Shown: positions 36,302-44,652, counted from the stretch's first letter. The stretch is 64,000 nt of DNA from an uncultured Marinobacter sp. (GCF_947259545.1 NZ_CAMYMK010000003.1:57469-121468), one strand, 5' to 3'. The notes: generated by a model from the letters alone, not told the origin. A program made the numbers and translations.

Positions 36302-37207
36302 ATGCTCAGCTTCCTGCCCGCTCCCGTTATCGGTGTACTCAATTCCATCCTGCTGGGAATCAACACACTGTTCTGGTGCCTGCTGCTCTACATTCCGGCG
36401 CTATTGAAACTCATCGTTCCCCACCAGGGCTTCCGCGTGCTCTGCACCCGAGCCATCATCTGGATCTCAGAATCCTGGGTGGCCTGTAACACCGGCTGGA
36501 TGAAACTCACCCATGGTACCCGTTGGGATGTGAAAGGCGCGGAGAACCTGCAGCGGGAAAGCTGGTACCTGGTGCTGAGCAATCATCAGAGCTGGGTTGA
36601 TATCTTCGCCATGCAGCGGGTCTTCAACCGTAGGGCACCGTTCCTGAAGTTCTTCCTGAAGCAACAGCTGATCTGGGTGCCGGTCATCGGCCTGGCGTGG
36701 TGGGGGCTGGATTTCCCGTTTATGAAACGCTACACGCGGGAATACCTGATCAAACATCCGGAGAAGCGTGGTGAAGATCTCAAGGCTACCCGCAGGGCCT
36801 GCGAAAAGTTCCGCTACACTCCGGTCAGTGTGATGAACTTCGTGGAAGGCACGCGCTTTACCCCGGCCAAGCACGACAAGCAAAAATCACCCTACACTCA
36901 TTTGCTCACCCCCAAAGCTGGCGGTGTCGCCTTTGTACTGGACGCCATGGGTGACTCTATCCAGACCCTGGTGGACGTCACCATTGCCTACCCGGGTGGC
37001 GCGCCCACCTTCTGGGATTTTATCTGCGGTCGGGTGAGTGAAGTGAAAATGGAGATTCACACCGTTGCTATCCCGGAGCATCTGAAGGGGCGGGATTACT
37101 CAACGGATGCGGAGCATCGCAGAAACGTCAAGGAGTGGCTGGCGGATCAGTGGCGGGCCAAGGATGAGCGCCTTTCTGCGATGCTGGGTGAATCCGTCAA
37201 AGTTTAA
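36302..37207 (+). CDS. Acyltransferase, YihG/PlsC family
   Basis: SNHQSWVDI, FFLKQQL, FVEGTRFT, LLTPKAGG. Confidence 0.92.
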   Translation: MLSFLPAPVIGVLNSILLGINTLFWCLLLYIPALLKLIVPHQGFRVLCTRAIIWISESWVACNTGWMKLTHGTRWDVKGAENLQRESWYLVLSNHQSWVDIFAMQRVFNRRAPFLKFFLKQQLIWVPVIGLAWWGLDFPFMKRYTREYLIKHPEKRGEDLKATRRACEKFRYTPVSVMNFVEGTRFTPAKHDKQKSPYTHLLTPKAGGVAFVLDAMGDSIQTLVDVTIAYPGGAPTFWDFICGRVSEVKMEIHTVAIPEHLKGRDYSTDAEHRRNVKEWLADQWRAKDERLSAMLGESVKV

Positions 37208-38344
37208 TCAGTTAACGAGGTCGGGATACACTTGCTTGGTCGCGGTGAAGACCTCGTTGAAATTCTTGTCGTTGCCGTGCTTCAGCCTGAGGTATCGGGC
37301 CATGTCTGCAAGTGAGTTGAAGCTCATGTCGGATGTGGCTCTGATGTGCTCCCAGCCGCCAGAAGCTTCTATCGCAGCCCGGCGGCCAATAGCCTCGCCG
37401 ATTGCAGAGCCTGCCATACCCACCAGTGCAATAGCCGCGAAACTATCGGAAAATTGTTCTGCAACAACACTGGCCGTGGCAGCCCCGGCGACGGTGCCCA
37501 CCTGGGCTCCGATCCCTGCGTTGATGGCCTGGTTAACCCACTCGGCGGTGACACCGTCACTGGTGTAGGGCGACAGATATTCCCCTGAATTGTTATTGAT
37601 GACGGCCTCGCTGGCCTGTTCCAACCGGTTGTCGTCAATTGGGGGATATTGCCTGGCGATGAGCTCCTCATCAAAATCGCGCCGTTCCATGGCTGCAAGA
37701 ACCTTCTCCATCCGAATCGAAACATTTCGATAATGGTTTACTTGCTGGAATGAATGTCCCTCAGAAGCTGCTAACGCCTGTTTGTTAGAATCCCGTCTGA
37801 TAGTGACAGCCTTTATCGCTGACAGACCTTTATCATTCATTAAGGTTGGATCCGCTCCGCGGTTTATTAATAACCTGATGGCCGCGGGCGATTTAAAGAA
37901 AACGGGATGATGGAGTGCTGTGTCACCCTTGGCGTTTCTTTGGCTGATGTCCCCACCCGCATCAAGGACGGCTTTGACTGCCGGGTAGGAAGTTGCTGCG
38001 AACAAGGCCGGCATGTCCTCACCTTCCTTGAGGCTCAAAGATACGTCGGCGCCATAGGATACTAACAAGTCAAATAGCTTCTGGTTGAAATCGTTGTAGA
38101 GGACCGAGCTTCCAAAGGCTGCATAAAGTGGCCGGTCTCCTTTGTAATTCGTTGAGTTAGGATCGGCACCTTCTTTCAATGCCTGCTCCGCAGCATTGAG
38201 ATCTGGATCCGAAACAATCGCATCAATCAGAACGTTGTGGAGTTTATTGTTAGTGCGGGTGGCACACCCGGAAGTTAATAAAACCGAGACAACCAGCAGT
38301 GCCAGCAGGATTCGCTGATCAATATGTTTAAAAGAGAGTACCAT
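37208..38344 (-). CDS. Ankyrin-repeat lipoprotein with conserved SPYTSDGV C-terminal domain (paralog A)
   Basis: Lipobox LTSG-C; ankyrin motifs GADPN, GDRPLYAA, GDTALHH, LINRGADPT; YLSPYTSDGVTAEWV. Confidence 0.85.
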   Translation of the reverse strand: MVLSFKHIDQRILLALLVVSVLLTSGCATRTNNKLHNVLIDAIVSDPDLNAAEQALKEGADPNSTNYKGDRPLYAAFGSSVLYNDFNQKLFDLLVSYGADVSLSLKEGEDMPALFAATSYPAVKAVLDAGGDISQRNAKGDTALHHPVFFKSPAAIRLLINRGADPTLMNDKGLSAIKAVTIRRDSNKQALAASEGHSFQQVNHYRNVSIRMEKVLAAMERRDFDEELIARQYPPIDDNRLEQASEAVINNNSGEYLSPYTSDGVTAEWVNQAINAGIGAQVGTVAGAATASVVAEQFSDSFAAIALVGMAGSAIGEAIGRRAAIEASGGWEHIRATSDMSFNSLADMARYLRLKHGNDKNFNEVFTATKQVYPDLVN

Positions 38345-38397
38345 GAGCAATTTGTCCTCTGACCTGAAAGGAAGTAGGGAAGTTCCGGAGTAACGAA

Positions 38398-39531
38398 TTA
38401 ATCAGCGAGTTCGGGATATATCTTTGAAGTTGCATTAAAAACATCTTCATAGTTCTCGTCATTACCATGCCTCAATTCAAGATAGCGCCGCATATCCTCA
38501 ATTGAGTTAAAGCTCATGTCGGACGTTTCTCTGATGTGCTCCCAGCCCCCAGAGGTTTCTATTGCGGCACTGCGTCCAATAGCCTCGCCAATCGCGGAGC
38601 CAGCCATGCTCACGACAGCCACGACTGCAAAGCTTTCCCCCAGTTCTCTTGCGATGGATCCGGCGGTAGCTGCACCAGTCGTTGAGCCAATCTGGGCCCC
38701 TATTCCTGCGTTAATTGCCTGATTGACCCATTCTGCAGTGACTCCGTCGCTGGTATAGGGGGACAGAAACTTCCCTGAACTGTCCGGAATAATATTTTTG
38801 CTTGCCAGCTCCAGCCTATTGTCATCGATAGGAGGGTATTCTCTGGCTATAAGAGTCTCGTCGAAATCTCGCGATTCCATGAGTGCCAGAATCCTCTCCA
38901 GACGAATTGCACGTCTGCGTTGGCTTTGCGCGAAGGTGACTGAATTTTTTTCGATGAGATGGCCCAGACGCTCTTTTGACGAGTCACGGACGAAAATGAC
39001 GACGTCAATCGCGGAGACGCCACGCTTATCTTTAAGGTGAGGATCAGCGCCCAATTCCATCAGTCGTTCCACGGCAGCGGGCGTCATTGATGCCGAATGG
39101 TGAAGAACCGTCTCACCACTGGAGGTTCGCTGTTTGACGTCGGCGCCGGCGGAGACGAGGGCCTCCACGGATTCGAGGGTTTTGGCGAAGAAAATCGCGG
39201 GTAAGTCGCCTTTTTCTACGAGACTAATGGATAAATTTGCATTGTATGAGGTGAGAAGTTCGAAGAGGTCTTTATTAAAGCCGTCGTTATCAGTACCCCG
39301 GATGAAGGCTTTTTTGTCTGGGATGAAAGCTTTGTGTAGAGGACGAACGCCGTCGTACAAAACCATGTTGGGGTCAGCGCCTTCCGCAAGCGCTTGCCTT
39401 GCCAACCCAATATCCTGTTCGCCAATAAATGCATTTTGCAGTTTTGTATTTGGCGTGGCGCAGCCAGAGAGCCAAATCATTGTAAATGTAAGACAGAAAC
39501 ATGCCGCGGTCTTTATGTAGCGGTTAAACAT
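38398..39531 (-). CDS. Ankyrin-repeat lipoprotein with conserved SPYTSDGV C-terminal domain (paralog B)
   Basis: Start MFNRYIK; lipobox LSG-C; GADPN, GVRPLHKA, GETVLHH, LGADPH; FLSPYTSDGVTAEWV. Confidence 0.85.
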   Translation of the reverse strand: MFNRYIKTAACFCLTFTMIWLSGCATPNTKLQNAFIGEQDIGLARQALAEGADPNMVLYDGVRPLHKAFIPDKKAFIRGTDNDGFNKDLFELLTSYNANLSISLVEKGDLPAIFFAKTLESVEALVSAGADVKQRTSSGETVLHHSASMTPAAVERLMELGADPHLKDKRGVSAIDVVIFVRDSSKERLGHLIEKNSVTFAQSQRRRAIRLERILALMESRDFDETLIAREYPPIDDNRLELASKNIIPDSSGKFLSPYTSDGVTAEWVNQAINAGIGAQIGSTTGAATAGSIARELGESFAVVAVVSMAGSAIGEAIGRSAAIETSGGWEHIRETSDMSFNSIEDMRRYLELRHGNDENYEDVFNATSKIYPELAD

Positions 39532-39559
39532 AATAGCTGTTCTCGAAAGCACTTGGATT

Positions 39560-40375
39560 TTATAATTCCGCCAGAGTCTGCAGCGCCAATTCCTGCCCCA
39601 CATCCCGCATGGACACGCGCTTCTCGCGTTTCTCGAAACCGTTATCCGTGGCAATCCAGCGGCGGTCTTCCTCGGTCTCCGGCGGCATGCCGTTGGAGCT
39701 GACCATGGTGCGGACCGAGCCGTCCTTGACGTTCAGAACGCGGATCTGGAAGTCATCGGAGGCCACTTCGCTGAGTACCAGCAGGTAATCCGCGTGCTGG
39801 TCCAGGGCGCGCATTTCCAGCCGCGCCTGGTCCGGTGACAGGCGTTCGAAGGTGCCATCCTCCAGGGCGTTGTCGGTAATGCGCATGATGGCATCGCGGT
39901 CGACAACTTTGACCCCGGCGCGGTTCAGCTGGGAGACAAAACCGCTTTGCAGGTCAAAGGCCGGTGCCGCCGGGCCAGAGCTTCGGCCCGAGCGGGTTTC
40001 GCTTTGCACGGCAGAGCGGGAGTCGCCGTCCAGATTCACATCGCCTTCGGGAACCTCGCCGCGCAGGCTGCCGGTGCTGGAAACCACCACTCGGCGACGG
40101 CTGGCCCAGTCGCTGACCTGATCATTGAACGTCCGATTCCAGAAAATCGCGATCCGGGGATCGGTTTGCCCCATGCCCTTCGAGAACCGGTCCAGAATGG
40201 CCTGGGCCGATTCAGAACGCTGCGATGCGTTAGCCTCGTTGACCAGGTCGTCTTCCGTCAGAGGCTTCTGGGGTTCTGCTTTCATGGGTGCGGCCGCGTG
40301 ATCGTTAGCAGAATGCACTGAAAGCGGGTACAGGCTGGCTACACAGGCGGCGGCGACAAAAAATCGTTTCATCAT
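39560..40375 (-). CDS. Exported protein with CsgG/TolB-N-like alpha/beta features
   Basis: Sec signal; RIAIFW, GVKVVDRDAI, ADYLLVL, IRVLNVKDG pattern resembling the CsgG/LpoB clan. Confidence 0.6.
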   Translation of the reverse strand: MMKRFFVAAACVASLYPLSVHSANDHAAAPMKAEPQKPLTEDDLVNEANASQRSESAQAILDRFSKGMGQTDPRIAIFWNRTFNDQVSDWASRRRVVVSSTGSLRGEVPEGDVNLDGDSRSAVQSETRSGRSSGPAAPAFDLQSGFVSQLNRAGVKVVDRDAIMRITDNALEDGTFERLSPDQARLEMRALDQHADYLLVLSEVASDDFQIRVLNVKDGSVRTMVSSNGMPPETEEDRRWIATDNGFEKREKRVSMRDVGQELALQTLAEL

Positions 40376-40818
40376 TCAAGCCCCCTGACTTCTACCCGGT
40401 ACTGTAGTGGCTGTGTTCCGGTTGAAAGTTCTTTGTAGGAGCTGACGCTGTTGGCCGGGATGGTGGAACGCTGCCAGGTGGGTCTGGCGTCCACCGGCAC
40501 GCCATCCTGATCGAAAAACTGGGTGCGGGCTTCGATCTGGTAGTCGTGGTCGGTGTGGTTACGCAGCACCGCGTAGACTTCCGTGGTTCCGGTTTCGGTG
40601 CGACGGCGTCCGTGATTGATAACGGACAGGCGATAGGTCTTGCCGCTGCCCATAATGCCGCCTCCCCAGGTCCGGCTCAGGTCGTAGTCGGTAAAGACCA
40701 CTGTGTTGTATTCAACCGGTGCGGTACGTTCCGTCAGTTTGGTGGAGTCACTGGGTATCGAGGAGCATCCTGCAACCAACAGCCCTGCCGCTGCGGTCAT
40801 AGCGATCAGTGTTCTCAT
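40372..40818 (-). CDS. YcfL/DUF1425-like lipoprotein
   Basis: Lipobox LVAG-C; LRNHTDHDYQIEARTQFFDQDG...PTWQ pattern. Confidence 0.75.
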   Translation of the reverse strand: MRTLIAMTAAAGLLVAGCSSIPSDSTKLTERTAPVEYNTVVFTDYDLSRTWGGGIMGSGKTYRLSVINHGRRRTETGTTEVYAVLRNHTDHDYQIEARTQFFDQDGVPVDARPTWQRSTIPANSVSSYKELSTGTQPLQYRVEVRGLE

Positions 40819-40819
40819 T

Positions 40820-42067
40820 TCAAAGGTCTCCTTTCCAGTCTAGGGGGCGGCGGGACGTGGCCAGTGCCAGTCCGCGGCCGCGGCCGTCAAAGTTGAATTC
40901 AGTGGTATGAGTCATGCCGGGAATCGGATTGCCGTTCTTGTCCAGAAAACGTACGGTGACTTTTTCGCCGGGTTCGGCCGTGATGGGCATGATGTGGAGC
41001 GTGTCCGGCAACGCTTCCCAGTAACGGATGTCCGCGCGCACATTGGCGGACGCCGACATACCCTGGGCGGCAACGCTGACCAGGCTGATGGCCGCAAAGC
41101 CAGCTCCAAGCACGCCCCCGGTTGCGGCACTGACACCGGCGAGCATGTTGTTCTGGCTCACCGAGCTGAGAGTGGTGCCGACATCACGGGTGGTTGATTT
41201 GTACTGGACCTGGCCTTCAACAATGCGATCAATGGCGCGACCGCCCCGGGTTGAGGCTTGAAAAAAGACGTCTTCCATGGGGTAAACCGTTTCCCAGCCT
41301 TTGTCTGTTTTCAGCTCCGCGCCCACATCCCGGAAGTTTTTGCCCCGGCGGTAAACCAGCTGGTAGTGGCCAACGCCATCGCCCAGCTTGCGGGGGGAGT
41401 TGCCGGTTTCGACGATCAGCAGTGCGTTGTGCTCTTCCGACGGAATGGGGGCGTCAGGCCGGAAGGCCTTCAGTTCCTCAAAATGCTGTTCAGCGAGTTT
41501 GTTGCTTTCCATCTGGGTAGCCGCCCAGCCGGCGAGATAGATCAGTGCCGCGAAATCCGCGCTGTTCTGTTCCTCCTCGGCGAAGGCATCCTGCAACAGG
41601 CCACTGATAAAGCTGGCCCGCGCGTTGCCATAGTCGCCCTCTTCCAGAAAGATCAGGCCCAGGTACAGGTACACCATTGAGCGTTCGTAGGGTTCGCCTT
41701 TGAAGTCCTTCTCGGCTTCCTCGTACCAGACGCTGCGAGCCTTGCGGGCGGCTTCATCGTCGGCGTAGATGCTTTCGATGCCGACTCTGGCCTGGTTCAG
41801 CGCTTTTTTTGCCTCGTCTCTGTAGCCTGCCCGGTAAGCTTTGAGGCCAATCTCCATCAGGTTAAGAACCTCGTTGCGACGGCCTTCCTGGTAAAGATTG
41901 CGAAAATCCTCCTGCACCACGGCGGGTTTGCTGGCCACAACCTGTTGCTGTCCGTCGGACAGGGTGGCGCGGTCGTAAGTTTTGGGCCCGGTTGCACAGC
42001 CGGCCAGCGTTGCGGCGAGCACCGCGCTGGTCAGCAGAGCCGGGCGGTGATTAACGGTAAACCACAT
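40820..42067 (-). CDS. TPR-containing lipoprotein (COG3014-like)
   Basis: Lipobox LAG-C; FKGEPYERSMVYLYLGLIFL..GDYGNARA; exact start uncertain (42067 or a nearby GTG). Confidence 0.75.
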   Translation of the reverse strand: MWFTVNHRPALLTSAVLAATLAGCATGPKTYDRATLSDGQQQVVASKPAVVQEDFRNLYQEGRRNEVLNLMEIGLKAYRAGYRDEAKKALNQARVGIESIYADDEAARKARSVWYEEAEKDFKGEPYERSMVYLYLGLIFLEEGDYGNARASFISGLLQDAFAEEEQNSADFAALIYLAGWAATQMESNKLAEQHFEELKAFRPDAPIPSEEHNALLIVETGNSPRKLGDGVGHYQLVYRRGKNFRDVGAELKTDKGWETVYPMEDVFFQASTRGGRAIDRIVEGQVQYKSTTRDVGTTLSSVSQNNMLAGVSAATGGVLGAGFAAISLVSVAAQGMSASANVRADIRYWEALPDTLHIMPITAEPGEKVTVRFLDKNGNPIPGMTHTTEFNFDGRGRGLALATSRRPLDWKGDL

Positions 42068-42692
42068 CGTCACGGGCCGCCTTGCGCATTTCGTAGAGTC
42101 CGCTCCAGACGATAGTGCCCAGCTCCAGGTCCACCATTTCAAAGGTGATCTGGCTGTAGCGGGACTGGGTGCCATCGCTGCGGTCCGCCGCGTCCAGGGA
42201 GGTGATGCGGCCCGCCATACGGTAGTCGGCGCCGGCCTGGGCCGCGGTTTCGCGAATGGTGCCGCCATCGACGGCGCCGTCACGTTTCAGGTCACGTTCC
42301 TTCTGGACCATGCCCGCGTATTCTCGGCCTACAAACACCATGCGGCCGTTGGCGGCGCGGTTCAGTTCAATTCGCAGGCGGTCAGTCAGCATGTTGGTGT
42401 TGACCACCGATGAGCTTTCATTACGCAGGTATTCGTTGTCGATGATGATGCGCGGCGGGACATCACGACCCGCCAGCATGGGGTTGGCCAGCATGTCCCG
42501 CATCATCTCGTCGGTAACGGCGACAATGTCCTGGCTTTCAATACCAACGCCGCCGACCTTGCCGGTGGTGGAGGCATCTTCATACACCGTCGCCTCGCCA
42601 CGGGTGTTATCTATATTGCTGGCGCAACCCGCCGTCAGGGAAACCGACAATGCCAGGCCCGCTGCCTTGGCAAATGGGGAGATGGATCGCAT
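42051..42692 (-). CDS. LpoB-family (penicillin-binding protein activator-like) lipoprotein
   Basis: Lipobox TAG-C; NESSSVVNTNMLTD, GADYRMAGRI, VDLELGTIVWS. Confidence 0.8.
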   Translation of the reverse strand: MRSISPFAKAAGLALSVSLTAGCASNIDNTRGEATVYEDASTTGKVGGVGIESQDIVAVTDEMMRDMLANPMLAGRDVPPRIIIDNEYLRNESSSVVNTNMLTDRLRIELNRAANGRMVFVGREYAGMVQKERDLKRDGAVDGGTIRETAAQAGADYRMAGRITSLDAADRSDGTQSRYSQITFEMVDLELGTIVWSGLYEMRKAARDDVVYR

Positions 42693-42721
42693 AAATTAAC
42701 TCCGGTCAGATGAATCAGGGA

Positions 42722-42747
42722 ACCGGCGGAGCAGGAGCTCCGCCGGT
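42722..42747 (-). other. GC-rich intra-operon hairpin without U-tract
   Basis: ACCGGCGGAGC-AGGA-GCTCCGCCGGT just after the stop of the first operon gene. Confidence 0.7.
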
Positions 42748-42752
42748 GTTAA

Positions 42753-44108
42753 TCAGTAGGCAGTTGCCAGGGCGCCCTCGAGTTCCGGGTATACCTGCAG
42801 GGTCACTTGCATGGCGTCGCCATAAGTCGGCTCCCGACCGTATTTCTGCGTCAGGTACACGGCCATGTCCCGCAGGGAGTCAAAACTCATGTCAGAAGAC
42901 TCGCGGATGGTTTCCCAGCCGCCGGAAGCGGAAATGGCAGCTTCGCGACCGGCGTCCTTACCCATCTGGGAGCCGATCATGCCGCCTATCAGCCCGGCAA
43001 ACGGGACCGAGTCCAGTACCTGATTAGCGACCATGCTGCCGGCAGCCGCACCAACACCGGAGCCAACGGTACTGCCCATGCTGGCGTTGGTGCCGATATT
43101 CACCCATTCAGCCAGAACCCCATCGGAGGTGTACGGGCTCATATATTCACCCTGATTGTCGCGGCGCACCATTTTGGTCAGCAGGTCATCGGGCATTGGT
43201 TTAGCGGCGATAGCGGGCATGGTCATGCCGGAGCAGGCGCCGTCATCCACCATTTCGCCATACTGGAAACAGGTTCTGCGTTGGCCCTCGGGGAGCAGGT
43301 AGTTGGTCATCCAGCCGTGAGTGACATCATTTAGCATGCTTGTTGAGCTTGTGAGCCGGCTGCCCATGTAGCTGTCGACCCGGGCTTGCGGTCCCATGGC
43401 GGTTTGCTGGTTCCTGCGAACCAGGGTCGTCGTGGTGTTGGCTGCCGGGTTGGCGGTCAGGATAAGGTGGGTATCGGATTCGACGCCTTCCTTAAAGACG
43501 CCGGAGGTTGCTGTCAGGGTCTGGATGTTCACCGTCTGACCGTTATAGGAATTGGCCGAATTCTGGCGAGTCAGGAAACGCGCTTCACCCTCAAGTTCTC
43601 CGCTGTTGGCAGTGGCTTCAGTACGCACCTTTGCTTTGCTTGTCGAACTGCTGGCATCGGTGGTGACGGTCTGGGTGTAACTGCCAACGCCAACGAACGG
43701 TCCCTCAGGCATGCCATTGACGCACTCGCCCTCGAGAAGTTTTACAGACTCAATACGGGTGTCTTGTTCCATCTCAAACTGGACGCCGTGGCGGGCCTGT
43801 ATGGCTTTGATTTCGGCCTCGGATTTACCATGTGTCACCATCCATTGCCCGGCGGTGCTCAGTTCGCAATCAATGGCGCCAGTAGTATCAAAGTAACTGT
43901 CCGGAGACGCCCGGAACTGCTGAAAGCTGGTGCGCAGTTCGCTGTGTCGTTGCTGCAGTTCCTCATCGGTGAACTGAGGTGACGACTGCAGTTCCGCCTG
44001 ACTGACGGTTGCCATGGTCCCGCCCAAATAAGCCGGATTAGTCGCCAGACAGCCAGTGAGAGTGGTTGAAAGTATGAAAATACCGAGTAGTGAATTCTTC
44101 TTGGTCAT
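42753..44108 (-). CDS. Lipoprotein with beta-rich N-terminus and conserved SPYTSDGV C-terminal domain (paralog C)
   Basis: Start MTKKNSLLG; lipobox LTG-C; YMSPYTSDGVLAEWV...ASGGWETIRESSDMSF. Confidence 0.85.
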   Translation of the reverse strand: MTKKNSLLGIFILSTTLTGCLATNPAYLGGTMATVSQAELQSSPQFTDEELQQRHSELRTSFQQFRASPDSYFDTTGAIDCELSTAGQWMVTHGKSEAEIKAIQARHGVQFEMEQDTRIESVKLLEGECVNGMPEGPFVGVGSYTQTVTTDASSSTSKAKVRTEATANSGELEGEARFLTRQNSANSYNGQTVNIQTLTATSGVFKEGVESDTHLILTANPAANTTTTLVRRNQQTAMGPQARVDSYMGSRLTSSTSMLNDVTHGWMTNYLLPEGQRRTCFQYGEMVDDGACSGMTMPAIAAKPMPDDLLTKMVRRDNQGEYMSPYTSDGVLAEWVNIGTNASMGSTVGSGVGAAAGSMVANQVLDSVPFAGLIGGMIGSQMGKDAGREAAISASGGWETIRESSDMSFDSLRDMAVYLTQKYGREPTYGDAMQVTLQVYPELEGALATAY

Positions 44109-44388
44109 CGTTCCGTCCGCTGTGCTGCTGTTTATTCCGAGCGCGTCAAATTTCATGACGAGGTTCTCTTGTGGCATTACAGATACGTATGAATAGCGGT
44201 TACCGAATCCCCTAAATAGGGTATATGACCGGCTTGGCCTTAGAGGGCAGGAGGTTTACTTTCTGAATTTGATGGAGTTTTCTGAATTGGCGAAAAGGGA
44301 AAAGTGTGTGCTTAAGTGTCAAGCTTTGTAAAATCTGGGTGTGGCTGATGTTTGTCGCGAGGAAATGGGATAGGTGGGGCCGAAGTGA

Positions 44389-44592
44389 TCAGTCCTGATC
44401 GTCTTCTTCGACCTCGTCGGGGTGCTCCTGTTTGTAACGCTCCCACTCTTCCCAGTCGTGGGGCGTGCCAGCGTGGGGGCGCTTCAGGTGTTTTGCGTGC
44501 TCCATAGCGTTATGGCGCAAGCTGTGGTCCCGCTCCTCTTCGTCCGTGTCGAAACCGTATTTCTTGAGGAACTCGTCAGGACTGATGGGCAT
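44389..44592 (-). CDS. Small acidic His-containing hypothetical protein
   Basis: 67 aa; AGGAGG RBS upstream of ATG. Confidence 0.7.
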   Translation of the reverse strand: MPISPDEFLKKYGFDTDEEERDHSLRHNAMEHAKHLKRPHAGTPHDWEEWERYKQEHPDEVEEDDQD

Positions 44593-44652
44593 GGCGCACC
44601 TCCTTTTTAAGGTATTGCCTAGTTAATACGGTGCGCCTGTGCCTTTGGTTTT

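Follow-up and report, generated by a model that had tools for sequence, protein, structure and literature searches.

A 64,000-nucleotide (nt) stretch of a Marinobacter sp. genome (hereafter the window, meaning the whole stretch at its full length) contains a compact block of seven open reading frames (ORFs), all located on the minus strand between positions 37208 and 44108, which we numbered g1 to g7 in transcription order from the 44108 end. An earlier reading of the same DNA (hereafter the original prediction) had described these genes as a tightly spaced co-directional set encoding exported proteins, in which a core of LpoB-like, tetratricopeptide repeat (TPR), YcfL-like, and CsgG-like genes (here g2 to g5) is flanked by three lipoproteins with a common C-terminal domain. 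The features of the block are listed below, with Cdom designating this shared domain and protein lengths given in amino acids (aa).

44109..44652, minus strand: 544-bp intergenic region preceding g1, presumed to hold the promoter of the block
42753..44108, minus strand: g1, 451-aa lipoprotein (LTGC), Ser/Thr-rich N-domain of ~300 aa followed by Cdom
42756..43160, minus strand: Cdom copy 1, approximately residues 317-451 of g1
42051..42692, minus strand: g2, 213-aa lipoprotein (TAGC), remote member of the LpoB family
40820..42067, minus strand: g3, 415-aa lipoprotein (LAGC), N-terminal TPR domain and beta-rich C-domain with a Gly-rich hydrophobic insert
40372..40818, minus strand: g4, 148-aa lipoprotein (VAGC) of the DUF1425/YcfL family
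39560..40375, minus strand: g5, 271-aa Sec-exported periplasmic protein, not a lipoprotein
38398..39531, minus strand: g6, 377-aa lipoprotein (LSGC), ankyrin repeats followed by Cdom, in the "downstream" slot
38401..38799, minus strand: Cdom copy 2, C-terminal ~133 aa of g6
37208..38350, minus strand: g7, 380-aa lipoprotein (TSGC), ankyrin repeats followed by Cdom
37211..37621, minus strand: Cdom copy 3, C-terminal 137 aa of g7

ORF calling agreed with the predicted arrangement of seven closely spaced genes. The packing is operon-like, with intergenic gaps of 60, -17, 1, -4, 28, and 47 nt from g1 to g7, the negative values corresponding to overlaps of 17 nt (g2/g3) and 4 nt (g4/g5); the start of g3 is at 42067 (MWFTVNHRPALL...LAGC), 17 nt within the end of g2. 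Lipoboxes were found in six of the seven proteins exactly as first listed (g1 LTGC, g2 TAGC, g3 LAGC, g4 VAGC, g6 LSGC, and g7 TSGC), with g5 as the single protein bearing a Sec signal. None of the six lipoproteins has an Asp at position +2, so that the E. coli sorting rule would predict outer-membrane localization for all of them. The flanks of the block are formed by an acyltransferase gene, convergent with g7, and an RNase II-type gene located 544 bp upstream of g1. As anticipated, no penicillin-binding protein (PBP), nagZ, or thiK gene was present in the block or adjoining it upon inspection of these flanks, PBP1B being encoded on another contig.

The C-terminal regions of g1, g6, and g7 proved to be a single domain of ~130 aa, with 54-70% identity between copies, and these are the sole three copies in the 4.08-Mb genome. 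Cdom is built from an SPYTSDGVxAEWVN motif, a two-helix glycine-zipper hydrophobic hairpin, and a helical module with SGGWExIR, SDxSF, DMARYL, and YPEL; in copy 1, these parts take the form of the SPYTSDGVLAEWVN motif, the glycine-zipper hairpin, and an SGGWExIR/SDMSF/YPEL helical module. No Pfam family covers Cdom, and a profile search against PDB sequences returned no significant relative. The Cdom alignment (A2) was seeded with copy 3, from g7. An exhaustive search of 1.84 billion cluster representatives with a hidden Markov model of the domain recovered 340 proteins, which indicates that Cdom constitutes a small, undescribed family. Ahead of Cdom, the ankyrin repeats of g6 and g7 both pass the Ank_2 cut-off of 27.3 bits (29.9 and 42.4 bits, respectively), and the ~300-aa N-domain of g1 is without an assigned family, the only Pfam match of this protein being a sub-threshold one to Gly-zipper_Omp.

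The original prediction had placed the shared-domain proteins with the four core genes, and both phylogenetic profiling and gene adjacency bear this out. Profiling covered 151 genomes of the bacterium's own family, 301 genomes of its order, and an even sample of 400 genomes of its class. Within the family, full-length g3 and Cdom were found in an identical set of 15 genomes (15/15 versus 0/136; Fisher p=6e-21, uncorrected for phylogeny). In the class sample, both were found in the same two of 400 genomes (2/2, the window's own and G050), and in the order sample they occurred together, and adjacent, in four. Furthermore, of the 65 Cdom loci retrieved from reference genomes, 57 lay no more than a few kb from LpoB-like, g3, YcfL-like, and in most cases g5 genes, so that a Cdom without the core is not a common occurrence. 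Several of the eight unlinked loci are second loci beside a core-linked copy elsewhere in the genome, or lie on short contigs. Lineages with core-linked Cdom include Marinobacter, Alcanivorax/Alloalcanivorax, Pseudidiomarina, Alteromonas, Perlucidibaca, a Methylococcaceae metagenome-assembled genome (MAG), and others, and the association recurs across several lineages far apart from each other, with either gene order.

Comparison of Cdom proteins across these lineages offers a view of what the domain might do. The simplest form is a Cdom-only lipoprotein of 175-190 aa, made of a lipobox, ~20 residues, and Cdom, and its gene directly precedes the LpoB-like one; this form was seen in Pseudidiomarina, Perlucidibaca, Alteromonas, the Methylococcaceae MAG, and MAGs labelled Alphaproteobacteria and Sumerlaeota. 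Given these Cdom-only forms upstream of the LpoB-like gene, Cdom is best read as a fifth conserved subunit, and its sequence features suggest that it is probably a core subunit embedded in the membrane via its glycine zipper rather than exported cargo. Larger Cdom proteins have an extra domain placed between the lipid anchor and Cdom, and a few versions have a domain appended after it. Among 80 full-length Cdom proteins, the N-domain was a PDZ domain in 17, ankyrin repeats in 6, and an outer-membrane protein (OMP) beta-barrel in 1, the rest being without assignment; PDZ heads are carried by Cdom proteins in sister strains of Marinobacter. PDZ and ankyrin N-domains serve in binding and are neither enzymes nor toxins, and these and the other N-domains are best read as lineage-specific, exchangeable add-on heads. 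The three lipoproteins had been proposed to be either substrates or exchangeable modules of the core. The second term fits, with ankyrin, PDZ, or no N-domain attached to a constant Cdom. The first is not supported, since in many lineages a lipobox, ~20 aa, and Cdom leave nothing to export, and since the hydrophobic hairpin, which resembles the glycine-zipper 2TM type, is typical of membrane-embedded outer-membrane lipoproteins. As for gene position, g1 occupies the ancestral "upstream" slot, directly before the LpoB-like gene g2, and g6 and g7 occupy the downstream slot as used by Alcanivorax. A polymorphic toxin was also considered as a candidate and rejected: here the C-terminus stays constant and the N-terminus varies, the reverse of a toxin's layout, and the N-domains serve in binding.

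The 7-kb block is an optional accessory island, found in ~10% of the family genomes (15/151). Four congeners that lack it have the acyltransferase and RNase II genes next to each other, ~320 bp apart, so all 7 kb were either inserted between these syntenic genes or deleted from there.

We then examined each core protein for its family and fold. The assignment of g2 as LpoB-like was confirmed by PF13036 (E=2.3e-24, 86 bits versus a cut-off of 22.3), a family with no other member in this genome. Its similarity to the E. coli protein is remote: the score against the LpoB equivalog model TIGR02722 was 74.7 bits, under the cut-off of 110.55, BLASTP against E. coli K-12 LpoB gave zero matches, and hhalign aligned g2 with E. 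coli LpoB over 124 columns at 84% probability and 23% identity. When the g2 family profile was searched against PDB, no LpoB chain was found, and the best matches, to PelC (5t10, 5t11) and FlgT, were non-significant (E ~0.6-1). A weak match of g2 to CsgG (PF03783, 1.6e-4) was also observed. The PF13036 domain, which spans residues 72-210 in E. coli LpoB, starts at residue 55 in g2, and the ~30 aa between the anchor and this domain are strongly conserved (IDNxxGxATVYED...GVGIESQD) and not of low complexity. A known feature of E. coli LpoB is a long disordered linker that spans the periplasm from the lipid anchor to the globular domain.

The g3 protein has no Pfam match of its own, and its predicted TPR nature was established by the detection of TPR_2 in 18/18 aligned homologues and by an AlphaFold model. 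It is the most conserved member of the set, with 55% mean column identity and ~50 invariant residues over 31 sequences down to 34% identity. The AlphaFold2 (AF2) model covers 389 residues, beginning 26 residues into the 415-aa protein, with a predicted local distance difference test score (pLDDT) of 73 and a predicted template modeling score (pTM) of 0.73. In this model, a TPR domain (residues 12-176 of 389) is followed by a beta-rich domain broken by a low-confidence helical insert, which is the Gly-rich hydrophobic segment MLAGVSAATGGVLGAGFAAISLVSVAAQGMSASA. A Foldseek search with the model returned generic TPR proteins only, which gave no assignment for the C-terminal beta-domain. The YcfL-like identity of g4 was likewise upheld (PF07233, E=3e-7, 30.7 bits versus a cut-off of 28.3), and BLASTP of g4 against E. 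coli YcfL gave no match. Profiles of g3 and g4 retrieved nothing significant from PDB sequences, and no functional account of DUF1425, or of YcfL together with LpoB, was found in the literature searched. An in-frame stop (one TAG) was noted in g3 homologues at L029 4525-5742 and G418:C14:436033-437199, reflecting either decay or a sequencing error.

The g5 protein stands apart as the only unlipidated member. Its signal is of the Sec/signal peptidase I type, ending in VHS/AN, and no Cys is conserved among its homologues. Searches of g5 against Pfam and PDB sequences returned no match, and PF03783 (CsgG) was detected at E<=1 in neither g5 nor 13 homologues. Its fold was assigned solely from an AF2 model (pLDDT 75), which displays an alpha/beta domain of the LpoB/GNA1162/CsgG/TolB-N type. 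Foldseek matches were all weak (E 0.014-0.05), led by the LpoB C-domain (4q6z, E 0.014) and including GNA1162 (4hrv), pre-pore CsgG (4uv2), and TolB; CsgG was matched at E 0.017 with a template modeling (TM) score of 0.2-0.25 and ranked under LpoB and GNA1162. An hhalign comparison of g5 with g2 was negative (probability 2%). A long hairpin (residues 94-127) is inserted after strand 1 with a pLDDT of 51-58, and this single hairpin is polar, charge-rich, poorly conserved, and weakly amphipathic. CsgG itself has two membrane-spanning hairpins. The earlier description of g5 as CsgG-like applies only at the level of the general fold, which g5 appears to have in common with CsgG, LpoB, GNA1162, and TolB-N according to these weak Foldseek matches; g5 has neither a PF03783 match nor a lipobox, and no curli-type substrates are encoded nearby. 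A secretion pore of the CsgG kind is not supported by a protein with no lipid anchor, no CsgG Pfam match, and a single polar hairpin modeled at low confidence. Directly after the predicted cleavage site, the mature N-terminus of g5 (40240-40310) carries a DHxAxPMMAP motif that is kept in Marinobacter and Alcanivorax homologues, and its His/Met content hints at metal binding.

Our preferred reading, to which we give roughly even credence, is that the seven genes specify an accessory lipoprotein complex of several subunits, anchored to the outer membrane on its periplasmic side and representing an enlarged branch of the LpoB-like/TPR/YcfL module. Its five conserved parts are a Cdom lipoprotein, the LpoB-fold protein g2, the TPR and beta-domain protein g3, the YcfL-type protein g4, and the soluble LpoB/CsgG-fold protein g5; two of the subunits are of the LpoB fold, g2 by Pfam and g5 by model. 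In such a complex, Cdom would have two tethers, its N-terminal lipid and a glycine-zipper hairpin dipping into the outer membrane in the manner of SlyB or YfgH, and this hairpin could pack on the Gly-rich insert of g3, which is of similar character. Beneath the membrane, g2 and g5, as the two subunits with the LpoB fold, might oligomerize like CsgG, PelC, and GNA1162-type proteins, and the TPR domain of g3 would reach into the periplasm to hold partners, perhaps peptidoglycan-remodeling enzymes, as described below for HP0018. The three Cdom subunits of Marinobacter, each with a different periplasmic head, could then act as interchangeable adaptors recruiting clients to the platform. By analogy with distant relatives, the role of the complex is likely to be accessory envelope maintenance or remodeling.

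Several observations weigh against this reading. Glycine-zipper families match Cdom only below their cut-offs (Gly-zipper_Omp, PF13488, in 12/15 members with a best value of 1.1e-4; the glycine-zipper 2TM family, PF05433, in 10/15 with a best value of 8e-4), the best glycine-zipper match among the 80 full-length Cdom proteins being 9.8e-7 in one of them. The co-occurrence counts are inflated by common ancestry within Marinobacter, and the linkage is not absolute in either direction. On the one hand, G671 (L088, C4:82000-100000) is one clear case of a core without Cdom; the core is kept but rearranged, with no detectable Cdom, in the order LpoB-like, YcfL, g5, a secreted coiled-coil protein of 189 aa, a g3 extended by a long C-terminal tail, and an OMP beta-barrel of 244 aa. 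On the other hand, divergent Cdom-like domains occur without the core in 2/301 genomes of the order, in short Sec-exported proteins. Both the g3 insert and the g5 hairpin, which are among the segments of greatest interest, were modeled at low confidence (pLDDT 30-58). Gene linkage, domain content, island status, and a distribution independent of PBP1B are direct observations; interaction, oligomerization, and membrane insertion are things we infer indirectly, the role is extrapolated from distant relatives, and the likeness to the published relatives (see below) is one of architecture. The Cdom-like proteins of the order sample (G691 and G735; L089 8089-8748 and L090 8401-9084) are ~220-aa Sec-exported non-lipoproteins with a Cdom-like C-terminus (E 1e-22 to 1e-25), possibly a free-standing sister family.

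The simplest competing explanation is that g2 is this organism's LpoB, an outer-membrane activator of PBP1B, with neighbors that are unrelated or auxiliary. Such a role would agree with the PF13036 match of the single such gene in the genome, with the presence in this genome, on another contig, of a PBP1B bearing UB2H (the LpoB docking domain in E. coli), and with the position of ycfL next to lpoB in E. coli. However, g2 is related to E. coli LpoB by hhalign alone and not by BLASTP, falls under the equivalog cut-off, and has a highly conserved pre-domain segment of ~30 aa that seems unlike the longer N-terminal stretch of E. coli LpoB. Moreover, PBP1B with UB2H was found in 19/19 congeners tested, yet a PF13036 gene was found in 6/6 carriers of the cluster and in only 2/13 non-carriers, leaving 11/13 non-carriers with PBP1B and without PF13036. 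This decoupling, along with the remote similarity to LpoB, the ~10% distribution in the family, and the location of the entire block on an optional island, makes plain activation of PBP1B unlikely, and we regard this explanation as the least probable of those considered. Hardly more probable is a funnel resembling PelC/PelB or a flagellar ring, in which a polymer would be guided, or another envelope machine encircled, by LpoB-fold rings together with a TPR scaffold. LpoB-fold proteins often form rings, the best PDB matches of the g2 profile are PelC and FlgT, and LPP20/FlgP-family lipoproteins flank a sister branch of the g3/LpoB-like pair. Those PDB matches are non-significant, though, and the block, an island set between housekeeping genes, neither contains nor adjoins any glycosyltransferase, polymerase, flagellar, or pilus gene. 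A flagellar H-ring set was rejected, there being no flagellar context around what is an accessory island.

The export role initially proposed for the core, as a machine for lipoprotein export or surface display with g5 as pore, g3 as chaperone or dock, and Cdom as recognition tag, fares somewhat better but is still improbable. It would account for the strict linkage of Cdom to the core, for variable N-domains on a constant C-terminal domain, and for the OMP beta-barrel found in one Cdom protein and as a gene within the G671 cluster. The CsgG/LpoB-type fold of g5, with its additional beta-hairpin of 2 x 14 residues and weak alternation of small/hydrophobic and polar residues, also points in this direction. 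Nevertheless, in most lineages the "cargo" would be Cdom alone, a 175-aa lipoprotein whose hydrophobic glycine-zipper hairpin is expected to remain in the membrane, and the supposed pore is unlipidated, has no PF03783 match, carries a charge-rich and poorly conserved hairpin, and is placed by Foldseek closer to LpoB and GNA1162 than to CsgG, at TM-scores of 0.2-0.25. With a similarly low probability, our preferred complex may be extended to a mobile "adaptor platform," in which Cdom would be a novel docking and membrane-insertion domain that plugs PDZ, ankyrin, or other heads into an LpoB-fold/TPR ring. In a stronger form of this idea, g5 would oligomerize by means of its hairpin into a novel type of outer-membrane conduit flipping Cdom lipoproteins to the surface. 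An adaptor platform, if true, would mean that one envelope machine can be retargeted to different clients in a modular and horizontally mobile fashion.

Comparison with known systems places the accessory complex in a wider family. In Campylobacter jejuni, the operon formed by cj0089 (TPR), cj0090, and cj0091 (LpoB homologue) encodes membrane lipoproteins, of which cj0091 is needed for adherence (PMC3100323), and in Helicobacter pylori, loss of HP0018 leads to hypervesiculation and HP0018 co-precipitates MltD and AmiA (PMC11394524). The likeness of these systems (cj0089-91 and HP0018/HP1457) to the present block lies in the co-encoded TPR, small, and LpoB-homologous lipoproteins (g3, g4, and g2 here), the envelope location, and the lack of an enzymatic domain. 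The block differs in gene order, in the addition of g5 and a Cdom lipoprotein, neither of which is described in PMC3100323 or PMC11394524, and in the triplication of the Cdom subunit with ankyrin or other heads. The E. coli ycfL-lpoB pair (b1104-b1105) likewise encodes DUF1425 and PF13036 lipoproteins close together, but here the order is LpoB-like, TPR, YcfL-like, thiK and nagZ are absent, neither g2 nor g4 is BLASTP-similar to its counterpart, and g2 is sub-equivalog and decoupled from PBP1B. As for Cdom, SlyB and YfgH are glycine-zipper outer-membrane lipoproteins (bioRxiv 10.64898/2025.12.22.696046), and the SlyB/Pcp/YfgH group (PF05433, PF13488) resembles Cdom in combining an N-terminal lipid with a two-helix glycine-zipper hydrophobic hairpin. 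In contrast to that group, Cdom has sub-threshold matches to these families, possesses unique flanking modules, and is genetically tied to a set of four partner genes.

The LpoB-like/TPR/YcfL module is widespread, being present in Campylobacter and Helicobacter and surviving as ycfL-lpoB in E. coli. Genome annotation routinely labels its "LpoB" proteins PBP1B activators, yet membership in the LpoB family should not be read as PBP1B activation. What is new here is the addition of two unnamed protein families, Cdom and g5, to this module. A fixed chromosomal site, presence in ~10% of Marinobacter genomes, and swappable PDZ or ankyrin heads amount to a natural experiment that makes the module genetically tractable in marine bacteria that are not pathogens.

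Distant g3 homologues were found in 7/400 genomes of the class sample, with full-length alignment and common GEPxE and ADTRxWxxLP motifs; they are without the Gly-rich insert and have an extra TPR segment. Each of them adjoins an LpoB-like gene, and LPP20-family lipoproteins flank the pair in the loci examined, this LPP20-associated branch being without both the g3 insert and Cdom. The constant presence of an LpoB-like gene beside every distant g3 suggests that the LpoB-like and g3-type TPR pair is an old nucleus whose accessory lipoproteins differ by branch. The LPP20/LpoB-like/TPR clusters of Gammaproteobacteria thus have in common with the block an LpoB-like gene followed by an adjacent g3-family TPR lipoprotein gene, and differ from it in their accessories, which are of the LPP20/FlgP family there and YcfL, g5, and Cdom here. 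In the sister loci L082-L086 (G025, G252, G031, G085, and G243), the LpoB-like gene (PF13036, 5e-40) precedes the g3-family TPR lipoprotein gene and two or three LPP20/FlgP-family lipoproteins flank the pair, resembling the H. pylori lpp20-HP1457 neighborhood known from the literature. The PF13036 genes of the two non-carrier congeners mentioned above (G454:C11:400281-400724 and G465:C24:339025-339462) match at 1e-41 to 1e-42, far above g2, and are probably of the LPP20-associated type.

At the borders of the block, a promoter and terminator scan was uninformative, with no sigma-70 consensus found in 44109..44652. At 37207/37208, the minus-strand g7 and the convergent plus-strand acyltransferase gene meet stop codon to stop codon with zero spacer, so any terminator must fall within coding sequence. 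Finally, the GC content at third codon positions (GC3) is 0.52 in g6 and 0.57 in g7, compared with 0.67-0.74 in g1 to g5 and 0.73-0.76 in the flanking genes, and these lower values suggest that g6 and g7 may have entered the downstream slot later than the rest of the block.

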